The notes under the pieces were generated by a model. It had not been told where the DNA came from. It saw only the letters and a program-made list of their open reading frames with translations, and did not search any database. From Actinomycetes bacterium (GTDB lineage Bacteria; Actinomycetota; Actinomycetes; Prado026): a stretch of DNA of 64,000 nt. Of the stretch, positions 6,173-62,502 are shown piece by piece; position 1 is the stretch's first letter; the number at the start of each line of letters is the position of its first letter. The position numbers were made by a program, and so were the translations under genes. The DNA is taken from assembly GCA_038210415.1 (NCBI GenBank), contig JBBQWS010000009.1, positions 14,267-78,266 of the forward strand, read 5' to 3'.

Positions 6173-6931
6173 ATGGCTATCGCACTCGTCACCGGCTCGA
6201 CGTCAGGCATCGGCGCGGCGTTCGCGGAGCGGCTCGCGGCTCGGGGCTACGACCTCGTGCTGGTGGCCCGCACCGCGGCCAGGCTCGAAGCGCAGGCCGA
6301 ATCTCTGCGGCATCGGTACGGCGGCGCCGTCGAGGTGCTGCCCGCGGACCTCGCCGACCCGCTGGCCCTGCGCGAGATCGAGGCGCGGCTGGCGGCGGAG
6401 CCCTTCGACCTGCTGGTCAACAACGCCGGCTTCGGTACGAACCAGAGGTTCGCCGACGGTGACGTGAGCGAGGAGGAACGGCAGCTCGACGTCCTCGTGC
6501 GTGCGGTGCTCCGGCTGACCCATGCCGCGATCGGCCCGATGATCCGACGCAGGCAGGGAGCGGTCGTCAACGTCTCGTCGGTCGCCGGCTTCGTGCCTGG
6601 CGGGTCCTACGCCGCGGCCAAGGGCTGGGTGACGTCGTTCAGCGAGGGCCTCGCCGCAGAGCTCGACCCCGCTGGCGTCCAGGTCATGGCGCTCTGCCCC
6701 GGGTTCACGCGGACGGAGTTCCACGAACGTGCCGGCATGGACGTCTCGGCGATCCCGGACCGGATGTGGCTGCAGCCGGACGACCTGGTCGAAGCGGCGC
6801 TCGTGGACCTCGCGAAGGGCAAGCGCGTAAGCATCCCCGGGACGACGTACAAGGTGCTGGCCACTGCGGCCCGGCATGCGCCGCGGCGCGCTGTCGCGGC
6901 TGCGTATCGCCGGGCCAGGCCCAAGCGGTAA
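6173..6931 (+). CDS. SDR family oxidoreductase
   Basis: The internal ATG at 6173 gives MAIALVTGSTSGIGAAF (TGxxxGIG) and the catalytic YAAAK. The upstream extension to 6095 overlaps the aminotransferase start. Confidence 0.85.
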   Translation: MAIALVTGSTSGIGAAFAERLAARGYDLVLVARTAARLEAQAESLRHRYGGAVEVLPADLADPLALREIEARLAAEPFDLLVNNAGFGTNQRFADGDVSEEERQLDVLVRAVLRLTHAAIGPMIRRRQGAVVNVSSVAGFVPGGSYAAAKGWVTSFSEGLAAELDPAGVQVMALCPGFTRTEFHERAGMDVSAIPDRMWLQPDDLVEAALVDLAKGKRVSIPGTTYKVLATAARHAPRRAVAAAYRRARPKR

Positions 6932-6970
6932 CCCGGCGAGTGGTCCGCGGAGCCAGCTGTCAGCCCGGGT

Positions 6971-9970
6971 TCAGCCCGAGCTGACCGTGATGACGCCGAC
7001 GTAGAATGTCTCGTTGGTGCTGCGCGCGGTGAGCACGGGGACCGCCTCGGCCGGGAACGTCACCTGGTAGGTGTCGACGTTCGTGCCGAAGGTGAGCGGC
7101 GGCCCGATAGCGCCGTCGGACGACGAGTCGGCGACGTTGTTCGGGTCCTGCGACCCGCCGACCGGCGTGAGCGGGGCGCCGTTGAGATCCATGGAGTCGC
7201 CGACAAGGCTCGCGTCGCTCTCCCAGAGCACCGCACCGATCGTTGTCGCGGCTCCGGGGACGCCGGTGATCGTGGTCGCCTGGTCCCGGCCCGGTTGTAC
7301 GCTGGCGATCCCGTCGAACACGGTCACCTGCGCTCCCGGGTGCGTCGGGTCGTCGAAGACGACGACCAGCGACCAACCGGCGTAGCGGTTGCTGCCGAGG
7401 GTCGCCGTCGGGTCGGCGGCCGACCAGGTGCCGCCACCACCGGCCCGGACCGACGAGGTGACGTCCGCGAAGGCCTGGTAGACCTTCGGGTTGGCTTTCG
7501 CGTCGACCAGGTGGGCGGCAGTGACGTCGGTGTAGTCCGAGTCCGCGGGACCACGGAGCTTGATGTGGGTCGGGTCGGTGGTGCCGTCCCAGCTGCCGGA
7601 CCAGTACAGCCCGGCCCAGCGCACCGTGGCGCCGCTCGGCATGGCGAGGTTGACCGCGGACGACGCGTAGGTCGAGGGGTCGCCGTCGGCGTCGTACCAG
7701 GTCATGTTCCAGTCGTTGTTGTCGAGCTTGGTGCCGATCCGGTTCTGGGCGTCGGTGCAGCCCTTGAGCACGATCGGGCAGGTCATCAACGTGTTGCCGA
7801 CCTGGGTGATCGATAGGGCGCCCTGGCCGGAGAACCGAGCGGTGAGGCCCTCCTTCTGGATGCCGCGCTCACCCGTGAGCGTGATCGGGGCAAGACCGGC
7901 CGCGCTGACGGTGACGGTCACCGGGGTGTCGCCGAGCGAGCGTTCGGCGACGTCGACCCGGAGGTACGCGGTCGTGGACTCACCCGGTGCCAAGGCGGGG
8001 TGCATGCAGGTGGCCCCATCGGTGGCTGCCGAGCACGACCAGCCGGTGACCGGCGCTCCGGTGGCGTACGTACGCGGGTGCAGGGCCGGGAGCCCGTCGG
8101 GCAGCCCGACCGCCGAGCCCTGGACGCCGACGAACGTGACGCCCTTGGGCAGCGCGACCGTGGCAGCCAGGGCGGTGGAGGTAGCGGTCCCGGTGTTGGT
8201 CACGGTGAAGCCGATCAGGCCGCTGCGGCCCTGCACCAGGTCGCCGAGCCGAGCCATCGAACCCGACAGGAGCGCGGCGCCCGGGTCAGTGGGACTGGGG
8301 GAGGGCGACGGGGACGGTGTCCCAGTGTCGGTCGGGCTCGGCGACGGCGAGGGCGACGGGGATCCGGTGTCGGTCGGGCTGGGGCTCGCGCTCGGGCTGG
8401 GGCTGGTCGACGTCGGCGTGGGGCTGGGGCTGGTCGAGGTCGGGCTGGGGCTCGGGCTGGTCGACGTCGGGGTCGGCCCGGCCGGGCTCGAGCTGGTCAC
8501 GGGTACCGGGATGGTCGCCAGCGAGGTCGGACCGCTCCCGGGTGTCGACGGGTCGCTTGGCCCGGGCGTCGACGGCCCGCTCGGACCGCCGGGTCCCCCG
8601 GTGCCGGCAGAGTCGCTCGGGCCCGGGACGACGGGTGCCGTCGCCGCCGGCGGGTCGCCGTTGATGTCCGGCTGTCCTGAGCTCTGGGTGAGTGCGACGA
8701 CGACACCGGCCCCGGCCAGCCCGATGACCGCTGCAGCGACGCCGGCGATCCAGGTCGTGGTGAGCGCGCCCCCGGTCGCCGTTGCCGTGATCGTCAGCGT
8801 CGGGATCGCGCTCGCCGCCGCGGTTCCGGTGCTGCTGCTGCTCGCTGCTGCGGCTGCCGGTGTGCTGGCTGCTGCGGCACTGGCGGCTGATCCCACGGCT
8901 GCGAGTCCGGCGGCTCCTGCGGCAGCCGCGGCGGCCACCGCTACCGCCCCCGACGACGCTGCTGCTCCGCCGCCTGCTGCTCCGGCGCCTGCTGCGCCGG
9001 CCCCCGCACCAGCACCGCTCGCCGCACCAGCGCCACCCGCGCCAGGGATCGAGCTGATGGCTGCGCCCGCGCCGAGCAGCGCGCCCGCTTTGAGGTAGCC
9101 TGCGACGAAGAGCCCCAGGACCAGCGGCGCAACGACGGCGCGCATGCCGTGATTGACGTCGACGAGCTCGCCGACGAGGGCCCGGCACCTCTCGCAGGTG
9201 TCGAGGTGGCCTTCGACCTGGGCGGTCTCACGCTTGGACAGGCCTCCGCGGGCGTACGAGCCGAGCCGGTCGGAGTACGGCTGGCAGCCCTGGTCGAGCG
9301 GCCCCATGAGGTGCTGCTGGAGGTAGGCCTGGCGCAGTCCCTCGCGGGCGCGGTACGCGAGCGCGGCGACGCCGTTGGCGGTGAGCCCGAGGATCGGGGC
9401 TACCTGAGCCGGGTTCAGTCCCTCGACCTCGGTGTGCCACAGCACCGTCTGCCAGCGCTCGGGAAGCGACGAGTACGCCCGGGCGACGAGCGACTTCTCC
9501 AGGCCCTCGACGGCGGGGTCGACGAACGGGACGCCCGGGTCGTACGGCTCGAGGTCGTCGGTGACCTGGACCTTGCTGCTCGCCCGGGTGCGGTCGTACG
9601 CGCCTCGCCGGAGGGCGGTCAGCAGGTACGCGCGGAACGCGACGTCGGGCCCGCCGCCGGCCTGGAGCACGACCAGCACCTTCGCGAAGGCGTCCGACAC
9701 GAAGTCTTCGGCCTCGCCGGGGTCGCGGGTCAGCTGCCGGGCTAGCGAGCGCGCGGCGCCGATGTGCCGCGAGAAGAGCGGCCCGAACGCCTCGGTGTTG
9801 CCGGCCCGGACCGCGGTGATCAGCTCAGCGTCGCTCGGCTCGACTGCGCCTTCGGGGGCGGCGTCGAGCGGGACGGGGGGCTGTTCGGACACGGGTCGGG
9901 CTTCTCCATTCGAGGTCGGCGAGCTCGTGCGTGGGGCAGTTTGTCCGGTCTGCGGCCTATCAGTGTCCAT
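6971..9970 (-). CDS. ECF sigma factor fused to a zinc anti-sigma motif, membrane segments, an Ala/Gly-rich tract, a Pro/Ser/Thr linker and a ~435-aa C-terminal domain
   Basis: - One uninterrupted frame.
- Sigma-70 region 2 (FVSDAFAKVLV) and region 4 HTH (NPAQVAPILGLTANGVAALAYRAREGL).
- HLDTCERC (HxxxCxxC) motif.
- Hydrophobic segments VVAPLVLGLFVAGYL and WIAGVAAAVIGLAGAGVVVAL.
- SPSPSPSPTDTG repeats, then a Trp/Asp-rich domain.
- Start taken at ATG 9970. The farther TTG at 9991 would make codon 2 a rare TTA. Confidence 0.75.
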   Translation of the reverse strand: MDTDRPQTGQTAPRTSSPTSNGEARPVSEQPPVPLDAAPEGAVEPSDAELITAVRAGNTEAFGPLFSRHIGAARSLARQLTRDPGEAEDFVSDAFAKVLVVLQAGGGPDVAFRAYLLTALRRGAYDRTRASSKVQVTDDLEPYDPGVPFVDPAVEGLEKSLVARAYSSLPERWQTVLWHTEVEGLNPAQVAPILGLTANGVAALAYRAREGLRQAYLQQHLMGPLDQGCQPYSDRLGSYARGGLSKRETAQVEGHLDTCERCRALVGELVDVNHGMRAVVAPLVLGLFVAGYLKAGALLGAGAAISSIPGAGGAGAASGAGAGAGAAGAGAAGGGAAASSGAVAVAAAAAAGAAGLAAVGSAASAAAASTPAAAAASSSSTGTAAASAIPTLTITATATGGALTTTWIAGVAAAVIGLAGAGVVVALTQSSGQPDINGDPPAATAPVVPGPSDSAGTGGPGGPSGPSTPGPSDPSTPGSGPTSLATIPVPVTSSSPAGPTPTSTSPSPSPTSTSPSPTPTSTSPSPSASPSPTDTGSPSPSPSPSPTDTGTPSPSPSPSPTDPGAALLSGSMARLGDLVQGRSGLIGFTVTNTGTATSTALAATVALPKGVTFVGVQGSAVGLPDGLPALHPRTYATGAPVTGWSCSAATDGATCMHPALAPGESTTAYLRVDVAERSLGDTPVTVTVSAAGLAPITLTGERGIQKEGLTARFSGQGALSITQVGNTLMTCPIVLKGCTDAQNRIGTKLDNNDWNMTWYDADGDPSTYASSAVNLAMPSGATVRWAGLYWSGSWDGTTDPTHIKLRGPADSDYTDVTAAHLVDAKANPKVYQAFADVTSSVRAGGGGTWSAADPTATLGSNRYAGWSLVVVFDDPTHPGAQVTVFDGIASVQPGRDQATTITGVPGAATTIGAVLWESDASLVGDSMDLNGAPLTPVGGSQDPNNVADSSSDGAIGPPLTFGTNVDTYQVTFPAEAVPVLTARSTNETFYVGVITVSSG
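8282..8674 (-). repeat. coding low-complexity Pro/Ser/Thr linker with tandem ~45-nt units (inside the ECF fusion gene)
   Basis: Residues ~440-570 of the ECF fusion. The sequence SPSPTDTGSPSPSPSPSPTDTGTPSPSPSPSPTDPG is visible as repeated GGCGACGGGGA..GTGTCGGTCGGGCT units on the + strand at about 8285-8400. Confidence 0.7.
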
Positions 9971-10152
9971 GATCGCGCGTGCGTATAACAACGCTTACAA
10001 GACAGAGACGTCGCCGCCACCGGATCGTGACGGAGAAACGGCCCTGGAAGCCGTACGGAAAAAACATCGACCAAACCCGCGTCACGGTTGAGCCCTGGGG
10101 ACGTCTCATCGGTGTTCGGGAAGTTTCCAGCCGGAGAGAGAGGAGGACGCAG

Positions 10153-27081: not shown

Positions 27082-27192
27082 CCCCCCTTCCCGCCACAAG
27101 GGTCCCCCCATGCCGCTAGGCCGCGGTTCAGGGACCATCACGACTTGCCCGGGATGTGTCCCTCTGCTGTGTGCGCCCTGGTGGCGGGAAGG
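27082..27192. repeat. palindromic intergenic element, copy A (right arm truncated)
   Basis: The left arm CCCCCCTTCCCGCCACAAGGGTCCCCCCATGCCGCTAGG starts right after the TGA at 27079-27081. The right remnant CCCTGGTGGCGGGAAGG (27176-27192) is the reverse complement of CCTTCCCGCCACAAGGG (27086-27102) at 16 of 17 positions. Confidence 0.8.
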
Positions 27193-27201
27193 TTGGTGCA
27201 G

Positions 27202-28449
27202 ATGACGGGGCGGACGACGGTTGTTCGGGCCGGGCGGGTGCTCGACGTCGACGACGGGAGCCAGCGTCAGGGGCTGGCGGTGGTCATCGTCGACGGCCGG
27301 ATCGCCGAGGTCACCACGGTGGCCAGCGCGCCGACTGACGCGTTGGTCGTCGACGCGGCCGAACTCACCCTGCTGCCCGGCCTGATCGACTGCCACACGC
27401 ACCTGGTCGGTGAGCCCGACGGTGGGCACGGGTACGCCGAGCTGATCACGCGTAGCGGCGCCCAGGAGGCCCTCTCGGGGGTACGCAACGCCCGCGCCAC
27501 GCTGCGAGCGGGCTTCACCACGGTGCGCGACCTCGGCACGTTCCGGGCGTTCGTCGACGTTGCGCTCCGCGACGCCATCTCGGCCGGGCACGTCGAGGGG
27601 CCGCGCATGCTGACCACAGGAGGCTTCCTCACCTGCAGCGGCGGCGGGGGCGACATCACCGGGCTGGCCGTCGACGTCGACTCGGTGCTGCCGCGCGACC
27701 TGCGGATCGGCGTTGCCGACACGGTCGACGAGGTACGTAGCGCCGTCCGCCGGCTGATCGGCGGTGGGGCGGACCTGATCAAGGTGATCGCGACGGGCGC
27801 GGTCATGACGGAGGGGACGACCCCGGGCGCGCCCGAGTTCACCGAGGAACAGCTCCGGGTGGCGGTGGAGGAGGCGGCCCTGCTCGGCACGTACGTCGCT
27901 GCCCATGCGCACGGCGCCGAGGGGATCAAGCGGGCCGTCCGCGCGGGGGTCCGGTCGATCGAGCACGGCTCGCTCATGGACGACGAGTCGATCGAGCTGA
28001 TGCTCGCCGCCGGTACCTTCCTCGTGGCCGACGTCTACGACGGCGACTACATCAAGGAGCAGGGGACCCTGCACGGCTGGTCCGCCAACGTCATGCGCAA
28101 GAACGACGAGACGACGGACGCCCAGCGCGACGCCTTCGCCAAGTGCGTCGCGCGGGGGGTACGGATCGCGTACGGCACCGACAGCGGCATCTACCCGCAC
28201 GGGTGGAACGCCAGGCAGTTCGCTTACCAGGTGCGGCACGGGCAGACTCCGCTCGCAGCCATCCGCTCGGCGACCGCGACTGCGGCGGAGCTCCTCCGGC
28301 TCGACGGTCAGGTGGGTCGGATCGCCCCCGGTCACCACGGTGACCTGATCGGCGTGTCGGGCGATCCGCTGGTCGACGTGCGCCTGCTCGAGGACGTCCG
28401 GCTGGTCGTCCAGGGCGGCCGCTGCGTCGACCTCGGCCGGGGCCGGTAG
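27202..28449 (+). CDS. metal-dependent amidohydrolase
   Basis: ATG 27202. Metal-binding motifs IDCHTHL (HxH), AAHAHG, IEHG and YGTDSG. Confidence 0.82.
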   Translation: MTGRTTVVRAGRVLDVDDGSQRQGLAVVIVDGRIAEVTTVASAPTDALVVDAAELTLLPGLIDCHTHLVGEPDGGHGYAELITRSGAQEALSGVRNARATLRAGFTTVRDLGTFRAFVDVALRDAISAGHVEGPRMLTTGGFLTCSGGGGDITGLAVDVDSVLPRDLRIGVADTVDEVRSAVRRLIGGGADLIKVIATGAVMTEGTTPGAPEFTEEQLRVAVEEAALLGTYVAAHAHGAEGIKRAVRAGVRSIEHGSLMDDESIELMLAAGTFLVADVYDGDYIKEQGTLHGWSANVMRKNDETTDAQRDAFAKCVARGVRIAYGTDSGIYPHGWNARQFAYQVRHGQTPLAAIRSATATAAELLRLDGQVGRIAPGHHGDLIGVSGDPLVDVRLLEDVRLVVQGGRCVDLGRGR

Positions 28450-33036: not shown

Positions 33037-33038
33037 GA

Positions 33039-33284
33039 CCCCCCCTTCCGCCACAAGGGTCCCCTCATGCCACTAGATGGCATTCCGGTGCCCTTCATCG
33101 CGTCGGCCGGCGGGCCCGATCGGCGACGCCGGACCGAGCCTGTCGATCGAGGGGCGCGGCCCACCGGCGCAGCCCGGCGCAACGAGGCGCAGCCAGGCGC
33201 CGGGGGCCGGCCCGGCCCGCTGATGAGTGTCACCAGACCGCGGTCTAGTGGCATCAGGGGACCCTTGTGGCGAGATGGGGTGGG
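33039..33284. repeat. palindromic intergenic element, copy B (full length)
   Basis: The arms at 33039-33077 and 33244-33284 are reverse complements; the inner 28 nt pair at 27 of 28 positions. The core is 166 nt. The element fills the whole galE/copD convergent spacer. Confidence 0.9.
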
Positions 33285-35336
33285 TCAGGGGTGGTTGCGC
33301 CGGTCGCGGCGGTTGAGGTCAGCCAGGCGCCGGTTGTACGCGGCGAGCTCGTCGTCGGCGTCCTCGCCGCGGTCACCGCTGGCCAAAGCCTCGGCCTCGA
33401 CCCGGTCCGCCGCCCGGTCGAACCGGCGGGCGTCGCGTTCGTCCGAGCGCATCCATTGGATGCCGATGCTCACGACCACCATGACCATCGGGATCTCGCC
33501 GAGCGCCCAGCCGATCGACCCGCCGAGGTGCTGGTCGGCGAGCAGGTCGGTGAGGTACGGACGCTGGAGCGACTCGAAGTAGCCGTTGCCCAGCAACGTG
33601 CTGGACGACATGACCGCGATGTTGAAGAAGGCGTGCAGCGGCATGGCGATCAGGAGGAGACCGAACCGGGCCGGATACGGCAGCCGTGGCGGACCCGGGT
33701 CGATCCCGAGGAGCGCCCAGAAGAACAGGTACCCGGACAGCACGAAGTGGGTCTGCATGAAGATGTGGCCCCAGTGGCTGCCCATCAACGTGCCGAACAA
33801 CGACGTGAAGTACAGCCCGTAGAAGCTACCGACGAAGATGGCGGTGGCCACGAACGGGTTCGCCAGGATCCGGACGAACGGGGAGCCGAGGAACGCGAGC
33901 AGCCACTCCCGAGGGCCCGCGTCGTCGCGGTGCGCGGGCAGCACCCGCAGCGCCAGGGTGCTCGGGGCCCCGAAGACCAGCAGCACCGGCACCACCATGG
34001 CGAGCGTCATGTGCTGGATCATGTGCGCGCTGAAGAGCACCCGGGAGTACGTCGCGATGCCTCCGCTGGTCGCCCAGGTGAGCAGCGCCAGCCCGGTGAA
34101 CCAGCCGATCGAACGGCCGACCGGCCACCGGTCGCCGCGCAGGTGGAGTCGGCGCAGTCCCACGCCGTACAGGGCGGCCGCGAGCAGGGCGACGCCGAGG
34201 AACAACGCATCAGGGCGAATCTCGGTGAGGGCGACCCGTACGAAGGTGGGCGGCGGCGGAAGGTCGAAGCCGAGTACGAGCCGCGCCGGGCTCGCTCCGC
34301 TGAGGTCTTCTGGAGTTACGACGGGGGCCGGCGTGCGCGACAGCGCGACAGCGATACCGATGGCCGCCGACATCACGGCGAGCTCCGCTGCGGCGAGCCG
34401 GACGAAGGCCCCGCTCCGGCGCGGACCGGTCAGCTGGGGAATCGTGGTGGTGCGGTGCCACCAGCCGGCCACTCCGAGCAGGACGAGCAGCACGGTCTTG
34501 GCGGTGACCAGGCGGCCGTACCCGGTGGTCAGCAGGTCCAGCGGCCCCGAGAGCCGGATCCACGCGTTGGCCATGCCCGACAGGGCCAGCCCGACGTAGC
34601 ACCAGAGCGCGACCGAGCTGAACCGTGGGACGACGTCGCGCAGAAGTCGCCGGTCGACGAACGCGACCGTGAGGAGCCCGCCGAGGCCGCCGACCCAGAC
34701 CGAGACGGACAGGACGTGGATGAGCACGCTCGAGACCGCGACCTCGTGCTGGCTCGACGCGCCCGAGTGACCGGTCAGGAAGGGGACCAGCAGGGCCGCC
34801 CACGCCGTGAGCAGCACCACGGCCGTGCCCGGTCGGGTGATCACGAACCGGCTGGCCACAGCGACGACGCCGACGCCGACGAGCTCGGCCAGCAGAGCCT
34901 GGCCCTGCGAGATCTCGGTGACGAAGTTCGTGAGCACCCCGGGGGCCAACGCGTCACCCACCGACCCACCGATCTCGTCGGCCAGGGTCAGCACGATCTG
35001 CGCGGCGACGGCGAGGAACCAGCCGAGCGCCGCGTACGACGCCCACCTCGTGAGCTTCACGGCGACGCCGCCGAGCCGACCGTTGCTGGTCGGCAGGAAG
35101 GCGGCAACGGTGAGGAGAAGACCGCTGGCCACCAGGCCGGTCAGGTCGGTGAGCAGTCGGGACACCGGCAGCGCCCAGCCGACCGCAGGTCCGGCCGAGG
35201 GCAGACCGGCGGGCACCGGCTGCGGGCTCCCGCCGCCGGCGAGCAGCGCGACCACCAGCGCAACCAGGGCGACAAGCAGGCAGCCCCAGGCGACGTGGCG
35301 CAGCGTCAGCGGCCCGGGGGCGGTGGTGTCCGACAT
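33285..35336 (-). CDS. CopD / cytochrome-oxidase-assembly (CtaG-like) fusion membrane protein
   Basis: ATG 35336 overlaps the copC stop by 1 nt. The product is 683 aa and highly polytopic, and it sits in an operon with copC. Confidence 0.75.
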   Translation of the reverse strand: MSDTTAPGPLTLRHVAWGCLLVALVALVVALLAGGGSPQPVPAGLPSAGPAVGWALPVSRLLTDLTGLVASGLLLTVAAFLPTSNGRLGGVAVKLTRWASYAALGWFLAVAAQIVLTLADEIGGSVGDALAPGVLTNFVTEISQGQALLAELVGVGVVAVASRFVITRPGTAVVLLTAWAALLVPFLTGHSGASSQHEVAVSSVLIHVLSVSVWVGGLGGLLTVAFVDRRLLRDVVPRFSSVALWCYVGLALSGMANAWIRLSGPLDLLTTGYGRLVTAKTVLLVLLGVAGWWHRTTTIPQLTGPRRSGAFVRLAAAELAVMSAAIGIAVALSRTPAPVVTPEDLSGASPARLVLGFDLPPPPTFVRVALTEIRPDALFLGVALLAAALYGVGLRRLHLRGDRWPVGRSIGWFTGLALLTWATSGGIATYSRVLFSAHMIQHMTLAMVVPVLLVFGAPSTLALRVLPAHRDDAGPREWLLAFLGSPFVRILANPFVATAIFVGSFYGLYFTSLFGTLMGSHWGHIFMQTHFVLSGYLFFWALLGIDPGPPRLPYPARFGLLLIAMPLHAFFNIAVMSSSTLLGNGYFESLQRPYLTDLLADQHLGGSIGWALGEIPMVMVVVSIGIQWMRSDERDARRFDRAADRVEAEALASGDRGEDADDELAAYNRRLADLNRRDRRNHP

Positions 35337-35881
35337 CACGACTCCTGCCCCGAGGCTCCCCGTCCCCGTCGCGACAGCCACCAGCCGGCAACGGCGCAGG
35401 CGACCAGCACGGCTGCACCTGCCGCTAGGGCACCGCCGGTACCGGAATCGACCGGTTCGTCGGCGCCGTCGGGGGGTTGCACCGTTGCCGGTGGCGCGGT
35501 CGCGCCCGCAGTGAGGGTGAAGCCCAGCGTGCCGGTGAGGGGGTGACCGTCCGCGGAGACGACGCGACACGTCACCGAATAGTGCCCTCGGTACGGCAGC
35601 GGTTCGAGCGGCTGCGTTGCCGTGCGATCGACCACCGTGGGCTTCCCGGTGTCAAAGCGCCCGCCATTCGGCCCGGTCACGATCACCACGTCGCCGATGT
35701 CCTGGACGTTCTCGTCGAAGGTCAGCACGATCTGCTGCGGGGAGCCCGACACGAGAGCACCGTTCGCCGGGCTCGTGCTCACGAGCTGGCTGTGCGCCCA
35801 CGCGGGGGCCGGCTGCAGCACGACCACCGCACTCATCACCAGGCCGAGCAGGCCGCCGCCGAGTCGTCGAGAACCGTTCAC
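35336..35881 (-). CDS. copC: copper resistance protein CopC
   Basis: 181 aa. The signal peptide ends AWA|HSQLVSTSPANGA, giving the CopC N-terminal His after cleavage. A C-terminal TM anchor is present. Confidence 0.82.
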   Translation of the reverse strand: MNGSRRLGGGLLGLVMSAVVVLQPAPAWAHSQLVSTSPANGALVSGSPQQIVLTFDENVQDIGDVVIVTGPNGGRFDTGKPTVVDRTATQPLEPLPYRGHYSVTCRVVSADGHPLTGTLGFTLTAGATAPPATVQPPDGADEPVDSGTGGALAAGAAVLVACAVAGWWLSRRGRGASGQES

Positions 35882-35960
35882 CGTTCGTGCCTCCCTGGAT
35901 CGAGTCTGCCCTGACCGGCGGCTGAGCGCGCCTGCGGTACGGGGACGGCGCCTCGACGGG

Positions 35961-45962: not shown

Positions 45963-46339
45963 TGGTGCCGCCGCCGCTCGACCCGGCGGACGTCCAGGTC
46001 GCGGTCGATGCCTGCCTGGCCGCGCACGCTGCCGGCGAGGTTCCTGGGGTTGCTGATCTGCGGCCGGCCGTACGCGGGACGCTTCGAGCCTTCGCCGCTG
46101 CGGTTCCGGGGCACAGCGTCGAGGTGCGGGTCCCTCCGTTCGCCGCGGTGCAGTGCATCGAGGGACCACGGCACACCCGCGGAACCCCGCGTGCGGTCGT
46201 CGAGACCGATGGGCTCACCTGGTTGCTCCTGGTCACGGGTGCGCTCGGTTTCGCCGATGCGACGGCCGCCGGCCGCGTACGGGCCAGCGGCGAGCGCTCC
46301 GACCTCACCCCCTTCCTCCCCAGCTCCCAGTTCCCCTAG
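45962..46339 (+). CDS. small SCP2 / sterol-carrier-like protein (uncertain)
   Basis: The ATG overlaps the hydrolase stop. The product is 125 aa, and the C-terminal part VETDGLTWLLLVTGALGFADATAAGRVRASGE resembles SCP2-type folds. Recognised from memory only. Confidence 0.5.
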   Translation: MVPPPLDPADVQVAVDACLAAHAAGEVPGVADLRPAVRGTLRAFAAAVPGHSVEVRVPPFAAVQCIEGPRHTRGTPRAVVETDGLTWLLLVTGALGFADATAAGRVRASGERSDLTPFLPSSQFP

Positions 46340-46356
46340 CTCCCCCTCCCCTAGCT

Positions 46357-46513
46357 CCCCCTTCCGCCACAAGGGTCCCCCCATGCCGCTAGAACGAGCT
46401 CGCGCGCCACTCATCGCAGCGCGGTTGAGTCCGCAGCGAGCCGCAGCGGCGAGTCGTGAGTGAGGCAATCGCGCGGTCTAGTGGCATGAGGGGACCCAGG
46501 TGGCGAAGGGGGG
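46357..46513. repeat. palindromic intergenic element, copy C
   Basis: Left arm CCCCCTTCCGCCACAAGGGTCCCCCCATGCCGCTAGA (46357-46393) and right arm TCTAGTGGCATGAGGGGACCCAGGTGGCGAAGGGGGG (46477-46513). The core is 83 nt. Confidence 0.9.
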
Positions 46514-46675
46514 CGGAGGGTGCTGATTTCGGGGCAGGGTCGGACGCGGGCAACGATTTGCCGCACCGAGAGGTAACGATTGCGACGGAATACGCACGTC
46601 AGCGGCCGGGGCGCGCTCCCGGCGCGGTAGCCTCGCTGCGCCACCTGCACGGACCGTGACGAGAGGACCCAACGC

Positions 46676-57072: not shown

Positions 57073-57088
57073 CGAGGGGAATCGGCAG

Positions 57089-59128
57089 ATGCGTGCTCAG
57101 GGGTGGGGGCCGAGAAGGTTGCGGGCTGGTGCGGTGTTGGCGGCGACGGCCTTGGGGCTCGGCGTGGTCGTGGCGGGGCCTTCCGTGGCGCAGGCGGCCG
57201 TCAGCGGCACTGCGTGGACGGTCGGTGCGGGCGTCAACGGTCAGCTCGGCACCGGCTCCACCGCGAACCGAGCGGCCTTCGGATCGGTACCCGGGTTCAC
57301 CGACGTGACCGAGGTGTCCGGTGGCCGGGAGCACGTGCTGGCCCTCGACGGCTCCGGCCAGGTCTGGGCCTGGGGCGACGGGCCGATGGGCGAGCTCGGG
57401 TACGGCGGCACCGCCGACAAGCTCAGCCCGACGCGGGTGCCGGGCATCTCGACAGCCGTACAGGTCGCCGCTGGCCACTACCACTCGTTGGCGCTGCTCG
57501 CCGACGGAACCGTACGGGCCTGGGGCTACAACGGTTTCGGCCAGCTGGGTGACGGCTCGACCTCCAACCGGTCCAGCCCGGTGACGGTCTCGGGCCTCAC
57601 CGGGGTCGTCGAGGTCTCCGGTGGGCGGGACCTCAGCATGGCGCTCAAGGCGGACGGGACGGTGTGGGCCTGGGGCAGCGACGTCAACGGCGAGCTGGGC
57701 GACGGTGCCCACACCAACCGGTCGACTCCGGTGCGCGTGGACAGCCTGACCTCGGTCGTCCACATCGTCACCGGTCGCAACCACGGGTTGGCCGTGAAGT
57801 CCGACGGCTCGGTCTGGGCGTGGGGACTCAACGCCTCCGGCCAGCTGGGCAACGGCACGAAGGTGTCGCAGGCCCTCCCGGTGCGCGCGACGGGGATCAC
57901 CAACGCGGTCGAGGTCGCAGCAGGGGCGGACGACAGCCTCGCCCTGCTGGCCGACGGCAGTGTCATGTCGTGGGGCGAGGCCGGCCGCGGGCAGCTCGGC
58001 TCCGGCTCGACCACCGACCGGGTGCTTCCCGGCGACGTCGCGGGTCTCCCGCCGGTCGCGTCGCTCGACTCCGGTCGCGACCACACCTTGGCCGTCACGA
58101 CGACGGGCCAGCTGTGGGACTGGGGCTTCGACGACGCCGGCCAGCTCGGCGACGGCTCGACCGCGAATCAGCTGACGCCGCAACGGATTCCTGGCATCGA
58201 CGACGCGGTCGAGGCTTCCGGCGGGCGCAACTACACCGTGCTCCTGAGGGGTTCGGCGACCCCGCCCGACACCGTCGCCCCGACCGTACCGGGCCGACCG
58301 TCGGCGACGAGCACGAGCGCCGGCCGGGTCGACCTGAGCTGGGCGGCGTCGACCGACGACCATGCCACCACGATCACGTACCTGGTGTTCAGGGACGGTG
58401 GGGCCGGGGCCGTGGGCACCGTGTCGAGCGGCTCGACCGGTCAGGTCGGCTGGGCGGACACCGGGCTCGCGGGCGGCAGCGTCCATACGTACACCGTCTC
58501 CGCCTCGGACGGTACGAACACGAGTGATCCGTCCGCGGCGTCGGATCCCGTGACCGTGGCCTCGGGCGGGGGCAACGACCTGTTCTCGGACGGCTTCGAC
58601 GCTGGTCTCGCGGGCTGGGGCACGGTCAACAACCTGGTGCTGGACAACGGTTCCGCGCCGCCGACGGGCACCGCCCCGAGCGTTCGGGCGACGATGGCCA
58701 ACCAGCCGGGCTACGCGTCCCGAGCCCTGTCAGCGGGAGAGCCCTCGGTCTGCACCGCGGTGAGCGTCCGGGTCTCCGCGTTGCCGCTCACGGGCACGAC
58801 CGTGAACTTCGTACGGTTGCGCACCGCTGCGAACGTTGCCATCGCACGGGTGTACGTCACGTCGGCGGGCAAGCTTTCCGTGCGCAGTGATGCCTCTGCG
58901 ACGACGTTCACGACGACCGCGACGCTGCTGGTCGGCCAGTGGCGCGTGGTGCGGCTGTGCACCACGGTGGGGACCGTCGGCTCGGTGTCGCTCTCGCTCG
59001 ACGGCGCGCTGGTCAAGTCCTGGGCGACGGGTACGGGGACGACGCCGATCGGCGTGGTCCAGATCGGTGAGGACGGCGCCCGGACCGCGGTGGTCAACTA
59101 CGACGACGTCCGAGCCACCCGCTCCTGA
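57089..59128 (+). CDS. secreted RCC1-repeat propeller - fibronectin type III - jelly-roll (LamG/ConA-like) protein
   Basis: ATG 57089 after GAGGGGA. Signal peptide AVLAATALGLGVVVAGPSVAQA. Seven G(Q/E)LG(x)G repeats, an FN3-like segment (VDLSWAAS..YTVSASD), then a ~190-aa beta-rich C-terminal domain. Confidence 0.8.
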   Translation: MRAQGWGPRRLRAGAVLAATALGLGVVVAGPSVAQAAVSGTAWTVGAGVNGQLGTGSTANRAAFGSVPGFTDVTEVSGGREHVLALDGSGQVWAWGDGPMGELGYGGTADKLSPTRVPGISTAVQVAAGHYHSLALLADGTVRAWGYNGFGQLGDGSTSNRSSPVTVSGLTGVVEVSGGRDLSMALKADGTVWAWGSDVNGELGDGAHTNRSTPVRVDSLTSVVHIVTGRNHGLAVKSDGSVWAWGLNASGQLGNGTKVSQALPVRATGITNAVEVAAGADDSLALLADGSVMSWGEAGRGQLGSGSTTDRVLPGDVAGLPPVASLDSGRDHTLAVTTTGQLWDWGFDDAGQLGDGSTANQLTPQRIPGIDDAVEASGGRNYTVLLRGSATPPDTVAPTVPGRPSATSTSAGRVDLSWAASTDDHATTITYLVFRDGGAGAVGTVSSGSTGQVGWADTGLAGGSVHTYTVSASDGTNTSDPSAASDPVTVASGGGNDLFSDGFDAGLAGWGTVNNLVLDNGSAPPTGTAPSVRATMANQPGYASRALSAGEPSVCTAVSVRVSALPLTGTTVNFVRLRTAANVAIARVYVTSAGKLSVRSDASATTFTTTATLLVGQWRVVRLCTTVGTVGSVSLSLDGALVKSWATGTGTTPIGVVQIGEDGARTAVVNYDDVRATRS

Positions 59129-59133
59129 CCCGG

Positions 59134-59297
59134 CCCCCCACCCCAGCCCGCCACAAGGGACCCTCCATGCCACTAGGCGGAGTATCCGTGCCACTCACCA
59201 CGGGGGGCTGACGGCTCTTCGCCGGCGTCGCCGCGCATGACTGACAGGAGACCTCGATCTAGTGGCATGGAGGGTCCCTTGTCGCGGGGGAGGGGGG
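59134..59297. repeat. palindromic intergenic element, copy D (compensated arms)
   Basis: The left inner arm GCCACAAGGGACCCTCCATGCCACTAG (59150-59176) and right inner arm CTAGTGGCATGGAGGGTCCCTTGTCGC (59259-59285) pair at 26 of 27 positions. The core is 82 nt. Confidence 0.9.
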
Positions 59298-59321
59298 CGG
59301 GCGCGGGACGGGGGAGGGGGG

Positions 59322-59696
59322 TCAGGTGAACAGGGCGGAGGCGACTGCGAAGCCGGCGGCGCACCCACCCAGCCCGACGGCGACGCTGCCGATCACGTTC
59401 ACCGTCGCGGCGCCCAGCTGGCCCTGCTCGACGAGCCGCACGGTCTCGAAGCCGAACGTCGAGAAAGTCGTGAACGCACCGCAGAACCCGGCGCCCAGCA
59501 GAGTCAGCGCCCACGAGGGTCCCCGGGTGCCGGCCTCGGCCCCGGCCAGCGCACCGAGCAGGACCGAGCCGGAGGCGTTGACCGCGAACGTGCCCCATGG
59601 GAAGGCGGTGCGGTGCCGCGACTGGACGTAGAGGTCGGCCAGGTACCTCATCGGCGCCCCGACCATCGCCCCGAGGATGACCAGCAGGGCGGTCAT
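59322..59696 (-). CDS. crcB: fluoride channel CrcB
   Basis: 124 aa with four hydrophobic segments and GAFTTFSTF. The ATG overlaps the upstream crcB stop. Confidence 0.88.
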   Translation of the reverse strand: MTALLVILGAMVGAPMRYLADLYVQSRHRTAFPWGTFAVNASGSVLLGALAGAEAGTRGPSWALTLLGAGFCGAFTTFSTFGFETVRLVEQGQLGAATVNVIGSVAVGLGGCAAGFAVASALFT

Positions 59697-60190
59697 CGAA
59701 CGACCAACCGTCGGGTCAGGACCAGTCCGGCGAGCACCGCCGGCAGGCCGACCACCAGCGTCGCCGTGACGTACAGCAGGGCCGTCCCGGCGTGGCCGTC
59801 GGTCAGCAACGACCTGGTGTCGAGCATGTACGTCGAGAACGTCGTGAACCCGCCGAGCACGCCGACCCCCAGGAACGGCCGCAGGTGCCGGTGCCCGGGC
59901 CAGACGTCGGTCACGAAGACCATGAGTACGCCGAGCAGCAGCCCACCCACGACGTTGACGGTGAACGTGGGCCACGGGAACCCGCCGGCAGGGGGCGGCC
60001 AGGCAGTCGCCAGCCCCCAGCGTGCGAGGCTGCCCACGGCGCCGCCACAACCGATGGCCAGCAGCACGTCCCAGCGCGAACGCAGGAGGGCGGCGAGCCG
60101 GGTGCCGAACGGCGGTAGGTCCTCGGGCTCGACATCCGGGTCGATCGGGTACGCGTGCAGCCCGGAGTCGTCGTCGGGTCCAGGGCTCAC
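59693..60190 (-). CDS. crcB: fluoride channel CrcB (second paralogue, with N-terminal extension)
   Basis: Contains GGFTTFSTY. The GTG 60190 start is tentative, and the true start may lie up to ~35 codons downstream. Confidence 0.78.
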   Translation of the reverse strand: MSPGPDDDSGLHAYPIDPDVEPEDLPPFGTRLAALLRSRWDVLLAIGCGGAVGSLARWGLATAWPPPAGGFPWPTFTVNVVGGLLLGVLMVFVTDVWPGHRHLRPFLGVGVLGGFTTFSTYMLDTRSLLTDGHAGTALLYVTATLVVGLPAVLAGLVLTRRLVVR

Positions 60191-60201
60191 GCCGGGCAAC
60201 G

Positions 60202-62442: not shown

Positions 62443-62502
62443 GTCGATATTGACAGTCATCGATACGATGTCTACCGTGCGGTATCGATGGTAGTCGATA
62501 TC
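62443..62502. promoter_or_regulatory. candidate ArsR operator region (four TCGATA-type hexamers)
   Basis: Layout: GTCGATAT (62443-62450), TCATCGATAC (62457-62466), a 15-nt spacer, GTATCGATGG (62482-62491), then GTCGATATC (62494-62502). The middle pair is an inverted repeat matching at 9 of 10 positions. The region ends just before the AGGAGG SD of arsI. Confidence 0.4.

Follow-up and report, generated by a model that had tools for sequence, protein, structure and literature searches.

The window analyzed here is a stretch of 64,000 nucleotides from an uncultured actinomycete (GenBank assembly GCA_038210415.1, contig JBBQWS010000009.1, positions 14,267 to 78,266 of the forward strand). It is a housekeeping region with the genes purA, purD, purB, purC, purS, purQ, purL, purF, purM, clpB and otsA, and it contains four palindromic elements, designated copies A to D. 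The subject of this analysis is copy D, which occupies the whole gap between the convergent stop codons of a gene for an RCC1-repeat protein and crcB. The following features were determined for this locus (positions are those of the window):

57086–59128, plus strand: gene for an RCC1-repeat protein; the stop codon TGA (59126–59128) abuts the left C-rich tract of copy D, and the start codon is estimated
59129–59321, no strand assigned: complete copy D; the palindromic region between the stop of the RCC1-like gene and that of crcB (sequence reading, RNA and DNA folds)
59129–59148, plus strand: left C-rich tract of copy D (composition 5′ of the cores)
59149–59176, plus strand: left 28-nt core of copy D, CGCCACAAGGGACCCTCCATGCCACTAG (sequence reading, pattern, nhmmer)
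59177–59258, no strand assigned: inner arms and loop of copy D; the inner arms, compared as modules, are about 42% identical
59259–59286, minus strand: right 28-nt core of copy D, forward letters CTAGTGGCATGGAGGGTCCCTTGTCGCG, reverse complement CGCGACAAGGGACCCTCCATGCCACTAG (sequence reading, pattern, nhmmer)
59287–59321, minus strand: right G-rich tract of copy D with several runs of at least 3 G (sequence reading)
59322–59696, minus strand: crcB (fluoride exporter); the stop codon TCA (59322–59324) abuts the right G-rich tract of copy D

An earlier note on this DNA had described a stem of 26 out of 27 pairs in copy D, which was found to be correct: positions 59150–59176 and 59259–59285 are reverse complements except for one C·C mismatch (C59152/C59283). 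The arm sequences given there could be reproduced as well, with GGGACCCTCCATGCCACTAG for both arms of copy D and GGGTCCCC(C/T)(C/G)ATGCC(A/G)CTAG for copies A to C. The right arm of copy A is indeed not intact, yet a remnant (CCCTGGTGGCGGGAAGG) survives at 27176–27197, so that the arm is not simply missing. The plus strand RNA of the intergenic region 59129–59321 is predicted to form one hairpin with a free energy of −114.7 kcal/mol (z −7.5). For the minus strand RNA and the plus strand DNA of the same region, −125.2 kcal/mol (z −8.6) and −61.5 kcal/mol (z −6.5) were obtained, respectively.

The pattern GGGWCCCNNNATGCCRCTAG has exactly seven matches in the window, all of them arms of copies A to D, compared to a chance expectation of 0.03. 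An nhmmer profile search of the window identified exactly seven modules and no more diverged ones. Two modules in inverted orientation form a doublet. The three further copies are:

27082–27201, plus strand: copy A, a decayed doublet between the stop of an aminotransferase gene and the ATG of an amidohydrolase gene at 27202; left core 27092–27119, right-arm remnant 27176–27197
33037–33284, no strand assigned: copy B, a doublet whose loop measures 168 nt, filling the gap between the convergent stops of an epimerase gene and a CopC-CopD-CtaG gene; cores 33049–33076 and 33245–33272
46318–46515, no strand assigned: copy C, a doublet and insertion of about 198 nt compared to the empty site in the related locus L035; cores 46365–46392 and 46478–46505

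The left arm of copy A and the left arm of copy C share an identical 20-mer (GGGTCCCCCCATGCCGCTAG), as do the left arm of copy B and the right arm of copy C (GGGTCCCCTCATGCCACTAG), whereas the right arm of copy B reads GGGTCCCCTGATGCCACTAG. The shared 20-mers fit copies B and C as recent descendants within the source genome.

Relatives of the elements were searched for in genomes, metagenomes, plasmids and virus contigs, and the loci found outside the window were numbered with the prefix L. The scan of representative genomes, covering 185,579 species, resulted in one real member, L002, from an actinomycete metagenome-assembled genome. Ten real loci were found in the metagenome scan (L004–L006, L009–L012, L014, L017 and L020). 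Homologs of the epimerase that flanks copy B led to 25 syntenic loci (L035–L059) from relatives with approximately 88% identity in the epimerase. No family member was found in plasmid sequences by blastn with copies D and B, the pattern scan of virus contigs gave chance matches only, and the loci of relatives with 72–80% identity (L003, L060 and L061) contain no module. The modules were seen solely in the lineage of the window and in its approximately 88% identical relatives.

In the alignment, the repeat unit is a module of about 56 nt: its C-rich tract is variable, the 28-nt core comes next, and the inner part, with CACTCAYC at its end, is loosely conserved. The sequence of the core is CGCCACAAGGG-N-CCCTTCATGCCACTAG and includes the dyad AAGGG-N-CCCTT, with T, C, A or G as the center N across the copies. 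Its foot CTAG is nearly invariant and reads ATAG in three arms. As read off the alignment, GCCAC occurs three times per module with a spacing of about 20 nt. A near-perfect hairpin of the unit itself is found solely in the left module of L002 (GGCATCAAGGGTCCCCTGATGCC) and in L012 7908–7962. Inverted pairs are present in B, C, D, L012 (877–1076), L020 (3050–3214), L043 (1434–1569) and, in a diverged form, L002. Single modules are found in the decayed copy A, L004/L014, L006, L009/L017 and L010/L011. The orthologous singles of L009 and L017 have identical cores (28/28), and the nearby intergenic DNA cannot be aligned; between those of L004 and L014, about four positions of the module differ, including the center N (C and A, respectively).

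A further single module, at L012 7908–7962, has the near-perfect palindromic core CCTATTCGCCACATGGGACCCATGATGCGAATAGG and lies in frame inside an FbiC-like open reading frame (ORF; L012 6472–9144). The encoded protein has two radical-SAM stretches and a CofH_C domain. The module adds ...AHQAHQAHQATHEGPQTSTYSPHGTHDANRSRFGG... in the linker and precedes the radical-SAM/CofH_C part (Pfam, residues 559–860). A second short motif, GCCGGCGGGCCAG...GGCCCGCTAAG, which is partly hairpin-forming, shares intergenic regions with single modules in the metagenome relatives (L004 2700–2735, L006 3685–3720, L009 5080–5130, L014 110–140, L017 1310–1390 and L005 10929–10939). In the window, no match to this motif was found except for a weak one in the loop of copy B (33106–33118).

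The inner arms B+, L012+ and L020+ form a cluster with 61–76% mutual identity, compared to 46–58% identity to their own partners. This common inner-arm type indicates that the doublets descend from an asymmetric ancestral doublet. An origin of each doublet by fold-back of one module, from which matched arms would follow trivially, was therefore ruled out, since three doublets share an inner-arm type unlike that of their partners, and the paired changes in the cores must be later events.

Co-variation between the arms was analyzed in the six intact doublets B, C, D, L012, L020 and L043 using 500 shuffles. In the 28-bp core, 95.2% of the cells are paired (shuffled mean 92.3%, reached by 1 of 500 shuffles). 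The covariation score was 0.138 compared to a shuffled mean of 0.072 and was reached by none of the 500 shuffles; controls in which the partner was slid by 1 to 3 columns gave scores of at most 0.052. Six cells carry a double change (shuffled mean 2.2, 1/500) and four pairs are changed on both sides (shuffled mean 2.1, 37/500), and 19 of the 28 pairs never vary. The arms of the core therefore co-vary beyond column composition and do not drift independently, as the earlier note had proposed. Pairs of a D-type and an A–C-type arm were not found either, so that neither of the two observations named in the note as refuting it was made. The co-evolution of the arms is real and recurrent, and the cores stay both near one consensus and complementary to each other.

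The center N is U-A in three of the doublets, A-U in D, C-G in L020 and U·G in L043. B and C have C-G at position 16, where the other doublets have U-A, and position 17 is C-G in D. In L043, AAGGG is changed to ATGGG in both arms. Intermediates with a change in a single arm were also identified: L020 pairs CCCTCC with CCCTTC, and L043 has T against C at N (T·G wobble). Compared to the family consensus CCCTTC, copy D has two paired changes (center T to A and position 17 T to C), and the A–C group has a paired change of its own (position 16 T to C). The orthologs of copy A keep the consensus T at position 16 (both arms of L043, right arm of L035), which shows the A–C state to be derived. Copy D is thus not a mutated version of an A–C copy; both groups carry their own paired changes.

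The co-variation is confined to the 28-bp core and does not extend to the whole stem. The partner inner arms are 42–58% identical, which is no better than background, and an ungapped comparison of all 70 positions shows no more pairing than shuffles do. The C/G tracts can pair in any register, with none fixed. The proposal that the hairpin itself is under selection is supported in part, in that the arms do not drift independently, but the constraint is mainly on the sequence and not just on pairing, since most pairs of the core never vary and the core is retained in single modules. An inversion of the central GGGWCCC by crossover between the arms, part of the alternative named in the earlier note, was rejected by reasoning: such an event swaps the inner arms and flips the loop, without a change of the center base in both arms.

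The cores are bracketed by C-rich tracts, mirrored as G-rich tracts. In the 40 nt 5′ of the cores of 21 modules, the frequencies of C and G are 62% and 11%, compared to 35% and 36% in the window. These tracts are a mutational hot spot with quick changes in length between orthologs. L009 (5289–5300) and L017 (1115–1160) differ by a 39-nt indel, L010 (2660–2760) and L011 (770–880) by 66 nt, corresponding to 22 codons in frame, and in L004 (2830–2915) the 14-nt unit CCCCCACCCCTATG is repeated five times. Both arms of L043 have the unusual outer flank CCCCCTCTCTCC beside the core, whereas the orthologous copy A has CCTTCC on both sides; the hypervariable tract was thus altered in parallel in both arms. 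In L010 and L011, the upstream ORF with a biotinyl domain continues through the tract, which encodes a Pro/Thr-rich tail, and stops at the TGA of a TGATG stop/start overlap within the module.

The presence of the elements varies among close relatives. L035 is syntenic with the window in the pur region and has an empty site in place of copy C, where the window has about 198 extra bases (46318–46515) that include both tracts. The insertion is located 8 nt before the original stop codon of the upstream gene with an SCP_3 domain, which now ends at a TAG in the C-rich tract. No direct repeat or target duplication was found at the junctions of copy C compared to the empty site of L035. Copy D is missing after crcB in relatives with a CrcB identity of 87%, 73% and 70%; where DNA past the crcB stop existed, the neighboring genes differ, and there is no D ortholog to compare. 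At the site of copy A, L043 has a full doublet and the contig of L035 ends within the right arm. Copy A is old, and the comparison of both states at this shared site shows that a doublet decays to a single module; in the alignment with a relative, the right arm of copy A has a deletion of about 35 nt. Doublets are gained or lost as whole units, including the C- and G-rich tracts. The metagenome contigs of L005, L014 and L035 terminate within a module and that of L004 just past one, as expected of a multi-copy repeat in an assembly.

Copy B is missing from the syntenic loci of the approximately 88% identical relatives, in which epimerase and otsA are adjacent and the CopC-CopD-CtaG gene is absent, so that copy B marks a difference in gene content. 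This gene, a CopC-CopD-CtaG fusion (33285–35893, minus strand), adjoins copy B in the window. Of the 25 relatives, 24 carry a different palindrome at the epimerase/otsA junction. This unrelated palindrome, GTTGATCTTGAGCAACACGGG...CCCGGTTNTGCTCAAGATCAAC, lies between the stop codons of epimerase and otsA and was observed at this locus only (L035 5905–5985, L043 7458–7545, L044 4540–4672 and L053 3291–3360). Among these four haplotypes, its C/G brackets range from approximately 0 to 50 nt, and one compensated pair was identified (CATG..CATG and CGTG..CACG). The occurrence of the same brackets around an unrelated palindrome indicates that the arrangement of C-rich tract, stem and G-rich tract is a local habit of the gene ends of this lineage; it is not private to one repeat family.

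With respect to gene context, at least 13 of the approximately 20 modules have a C-rich tract that starts at the stop codon of a same-strand gene or directly behind it. The predicted RNA folding energies of the two strands are −175/−178 kcal/mol for B, −106.5/−106.0 for C, −103/−112.5 for D, −161/−148 for L012 and −108/−111.5 for L020, with stems of 60–97 predicted pairs. Neither strand is consistently the better folder, and no consistent excess of G·U pairs or RNA strand preference was found. In the arms, which were read manually, the transition mismatches of C and L020 are C·A and not G·U on the strand common to both flanking genes. The number of terminator-like sites in the region 58900–59500 was zero; a G-rich tract and not a U-tract comes after the stem, unlike in an intrinsic (Rho-independent) terminator. 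A promoter-like site was not found at the copy D region. Rfam 15 gave no match in the whole window at the gathering score and four weak matches at E ≤ 5, none of them at an element. The functional unit suggested by the earlier note, as far as an RNA hairpin is meant, is thus not borne out by strand preference, U-tract or Rfam match.

In view of these results, copy D probably belongs to a family of interspersed palindromic doublets that had not been described before, similar to REPINs and BIMEs, in a lineage of uncultured actinomycetes. Paired changes such as those of copy D are usual for such repeats and are alone no evidence for a new regulatory RNA. By comparison of the layouts, the architecture appears closest to that of REPINs/BIMEs, which consist of two inverted REP sequences and are mobilized by RAYT/TnpA-REP, although membership in the REPs is not established. 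Characterized RAYT/REP systems are mostly from Proteobacteria. Like REPINs/BIMEs, the elements are extragenic, often located between convergent genes, and built from a short unit that bears a dyad. Both inverted doublets forming long hairpins and decayed singlets, as in REPs, are found here. The two units of a doublet may differ in subtype, similar to Y and Z in E. coli, and the presence or absence varies among relatives without target duplication. Compensatory changes are common in REPIN/BIME hairpins (PMC3116915). In-frame insertions of REPs within genes have been reported (PMC6006769), as seen here for the module at L012 7908–7962 in the FbiC-like ORF. A difference is the hypervariable C-rich tract of each unit, mirrored as a G-rich tract.

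Several observations weigh against this assignment. REP units carry the 5′ tetranucleotide GT[AG]G at the foot of the hairpin (PMC6006769), whereas the foot found here is CTAG, which on the reverse strand precedes the palindrome. REP units are imperfect palindromes with a stable hairpin of their own; the hairpin of the unit itself is weak in the window copies, with 5 bp, a 3 × 3 internal loop and 2 bp, and near-perfect in the left module of L002 and in L012 7908–7962. REPs have a cognate Y1 (HUH) transposase gene flanked by the repeats in the genome. Here, neither a gene of this kind nor any other transposase or an integrase was identified among the approximately 58 ORFs of the window that were scanned and ten proteins adjoining modules in other loci, and the host is an actinomycete. 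The difference at copy C could in principle be due to a precise deletion in L035 instead of an insertion. The shuffle test overstates independence, since the six doublets share ancestry, and a manual count of the differences from the consensus resulted in about 5 double events compared to about 11 single-arm events. REPs number tens to hundreds of extragenic copies per genome; the sample here consists of four elements in 64 kb, all of them intergenic, and about 20 modules overall, one of them in frame inside a gene.

Other repeat types were compared as well. Correia/NEMIS and ERIC/IRU elements are 100–250 bp in length, have terminal inverted repeats, are intergenic and co-transcribed with their neighbors, and form long hairpins. 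The doublets share the size, inverted repeats, intergenic location and hairpins of these MITE-like repeats. They differ in that no target-site duplication is present at the sole empty site available (copy C), that no related autonomous insertion sequence was found, and that their ends are not sharp but fade into low-complexity C/G tracts. A DDE-type MITE was rejected: the doublets have inverted repeats, yet no direct repeat flanks copy C in the comparison with L035. An integron attC site was also rejected, because the ends CGCCACAAGGG ... CCCTTGTGGCG contain no GTTRRRY by reading and no integrase is present in the window. The repeated terminator motif TRIT of Mycobacterium tuberculosis, whose genome is poor in L-shaped terminators (stem plus U-tail), is tied to well-defined mRNA 3′ ends (PMC3384566). 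Like TRIT, the copy D family is an actinobacterial motif; by description, its stem is much longer than that of TRIT, and it is dispensable to close relatives.

MIRUs are actinobacterial intercistronic tandem direct repeats with small ORFs that overlap the flanking stop and start codons. An ORF opening at the ATG of copy A (27110) ends at TGA 27203–27205 and overlaps the amidohydrolase start ATG (27202–27204). The resulting ATGA (27202–27205) and the TGATG overlap inside the module of L010/L011 are similar to the MIRU arrangement. The layout at copy A may suggest translational coupling or be due to chance. In contrast to MIRUs, the elements are palindromes, the overlaps occur at two loci only, and the variability over codon positions gives no sign of coding.

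A mechanism consistent with the data can be outlined. Two inverted modules would form a doublet able to fold into a long hairpin, and singles would be decayed doublets. The core would serve as a sequence-specific recognition site for a putative protein, which may be a mobilizing enzyme or a binding protein. At the free positions (the dyad center N and positions 16–17), one arm would change and the other would later acquire the matching change. The stem would form in vivo, and the matching could be due to selection on the stem, to template-switch copying between the arms, or to both. Copy D and the A–C group would then be two sublineages in which different paired changes were fixed. In addition, a host-level role is plausible, since the same order of a C-rich, G-poor tract and then a strong stem is met from either direction and would suit a Rho-loading and pause site between convergent genes.

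It is possible, though doubtful, that the hairpin is itself a host cis-element in RNA, i.e., a bidirectional terminator, a Rho-dependent pause site or a 3′-end stabilizer, with direct selection on pairing. The location of at least 13 of about 20 modules at or after a stop codon of the same strand, with B and D between convergent genes, fits this explanation, as do the very stable folds and the C-rich, G-poor tract before the stem in both directions. The unrelated epimerase/otsA palindrome of the relatives, with the same C/G bracket and one compensated pair, and the conservation of cores in situ between orthologs are also consistent with it. However, there is no U-tract, terminator-like site or Rfam match even at E ≤ 5, and no strand folds consistently better. 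The mismatches in C and L020 are C·A on the strand of both flanking genes, and the invariance of 19 of 28 stem pairs shows that the sequence itself is conserved. Single modules retain the core without a partner, stems of 60–97 pairs far exceed the need of a terminator, and the element is dispensable, being missing at the matching gene ends of 87–88% identical relatives. The invariance of the core, the singles without partner, the lack of strand bias and U-tract and the dispensability all argue against a plain structural terminator. Alternatively, the hairpin may not be under selection, and template-switch copying or gene conversion from arm to arm could transfer several differences per event, an explanation which we regard with some doubt. 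Template switching is known to perfect imperfect inverted repeats and to yield multibase compensatory changes in one step at quasi-palindromes (PMC8794818). The paired changes of copy D at positions 12 and 17 are 5 nt apart, the odd flank CCCCCTCTCTCC is matched in both arms of L043, and the C/G tracts slip between close orthologs (39- and 66-nt indels, 14-nt tandem repeat), as would be expected. On the other hand, homogenization halts sharply at CTAG, beyond which the partner inner arms are 42–58% identical. Mismatches persist directly after CTAG (G and A in the partner arms of D, L012, L020 and L043) and within the core (CCAATAG facing CCACTAG in L020 and CCGCTAG in L043). Moreover, template switching is a mechanism and not an element family, and it leaves the near-consensus state of the core in single modules unexplained. 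Selection on the stem and template switching both fit these data, which do not discriminate between them, and both need stem formation in vivo; the sharp stop at CTAG and the lasting mismatches beside it speak for selection on the 28-bp stem, and the closely spaced paired changes of copy D and the matched flanks of L043 for template switching.

The reading of each arm as an independent double-stranded DNA site for a dimeric protein recognizing AAGGG-N-CCCTT, with the hairpin being incidental, is unlikely; in this view, the variable positions make no contact with the protein, and the partners agree by shared descent alone. The center N takes all four bases across the modules and differs between the orthologous singles L004 and L014 (C and A), single modules are conserved without a partner, and GCCAC is repeated three times per module at a spacing of about 20 nt, all of which would be explained by such a site. 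But partner arms agree at the free positions beyond shuffles (0/500), and three doublets with a shared inner-arm type seem to derive from one ancestor, in which case the paired differences must have arisen later on both arms; in addition, no candidate protein was identified. That the arms resemble each other by chance, or that they are a short conserved gene for a peptide in which AAGGG is placed 7 nt before an ATG opening MPLDRGL..., is highly improbable. All arms share ATGCC(A/G)CTAG after AAGGG, the ORF of copy A from the ATG at 27110 ends in the overlap with the amidohydrolase start, and the ATG of L010/L011 is in frame with the downstream gene. Chance is contradicted by seven pattern matches compared to 0.03 expected, and the ORFs diverge in length and content beyond 11 codons. 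The coding of a peptide MPLDRGL... was ruled out, as the columns vary to the same extent at all three codon positions (0.81, 0.83 and 0.90 bits). A more far-reaching and rather unlikely explanation is an undescribed actinobacterial class of mobile elements, in which stop-adjacent doublets with 28-bp, CTAG-footed arms would be recognized by a putative non-RAYT enzyme and the C/G tracts would turn them into bidirectional terminators. The self-expanding tracts may then form i-motif or G-quadruplex structures and load Rho, the arms would be matched by mutual copying, and the element could also land in frame in protein linkers.

As REPIN/BIME-like doublets, the copies of this family extend the interspersed palindromic repeats, a group familiar chiefly from Proteobacteria, by an example from an actinomycete. 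They provide a clean, small case for the question of whether compensatory changes in a stem reflect selection or template-switch mutation. The elements break metagenome assemblies, give proteins proline-rich tails or substitute the last codons of a gene, and mark differences in gene order between close relatives.

Further features were observed in the window outside of the elements. The RCC1 gene contains six direct repeats with an exact spacing of 150 nt (57366–58167), which are the RCC1 blades of the protein and no DNA-level element. Two crcB genes are neighbors at 59322–60200, and no fluoride riboswitch was listed anywhere in the window by the Rfam scans. Tandem 27-nt repeats (GGGCTGGGGCTGGTCGAC-like units) were found at 8285–8493 inside an unannotated gap of 3 kb (6931–9979), in which composition-based calls gave no gene. 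Between the divergent genes of an ArsR-family regulator and a glyoxalase-family protein, a 21-nt inverted repeat (GATATTGACAGTCATCGATAC / GTATCGATGGTAGTCGATATC) is located at 62446–62502, which looks like an operator.

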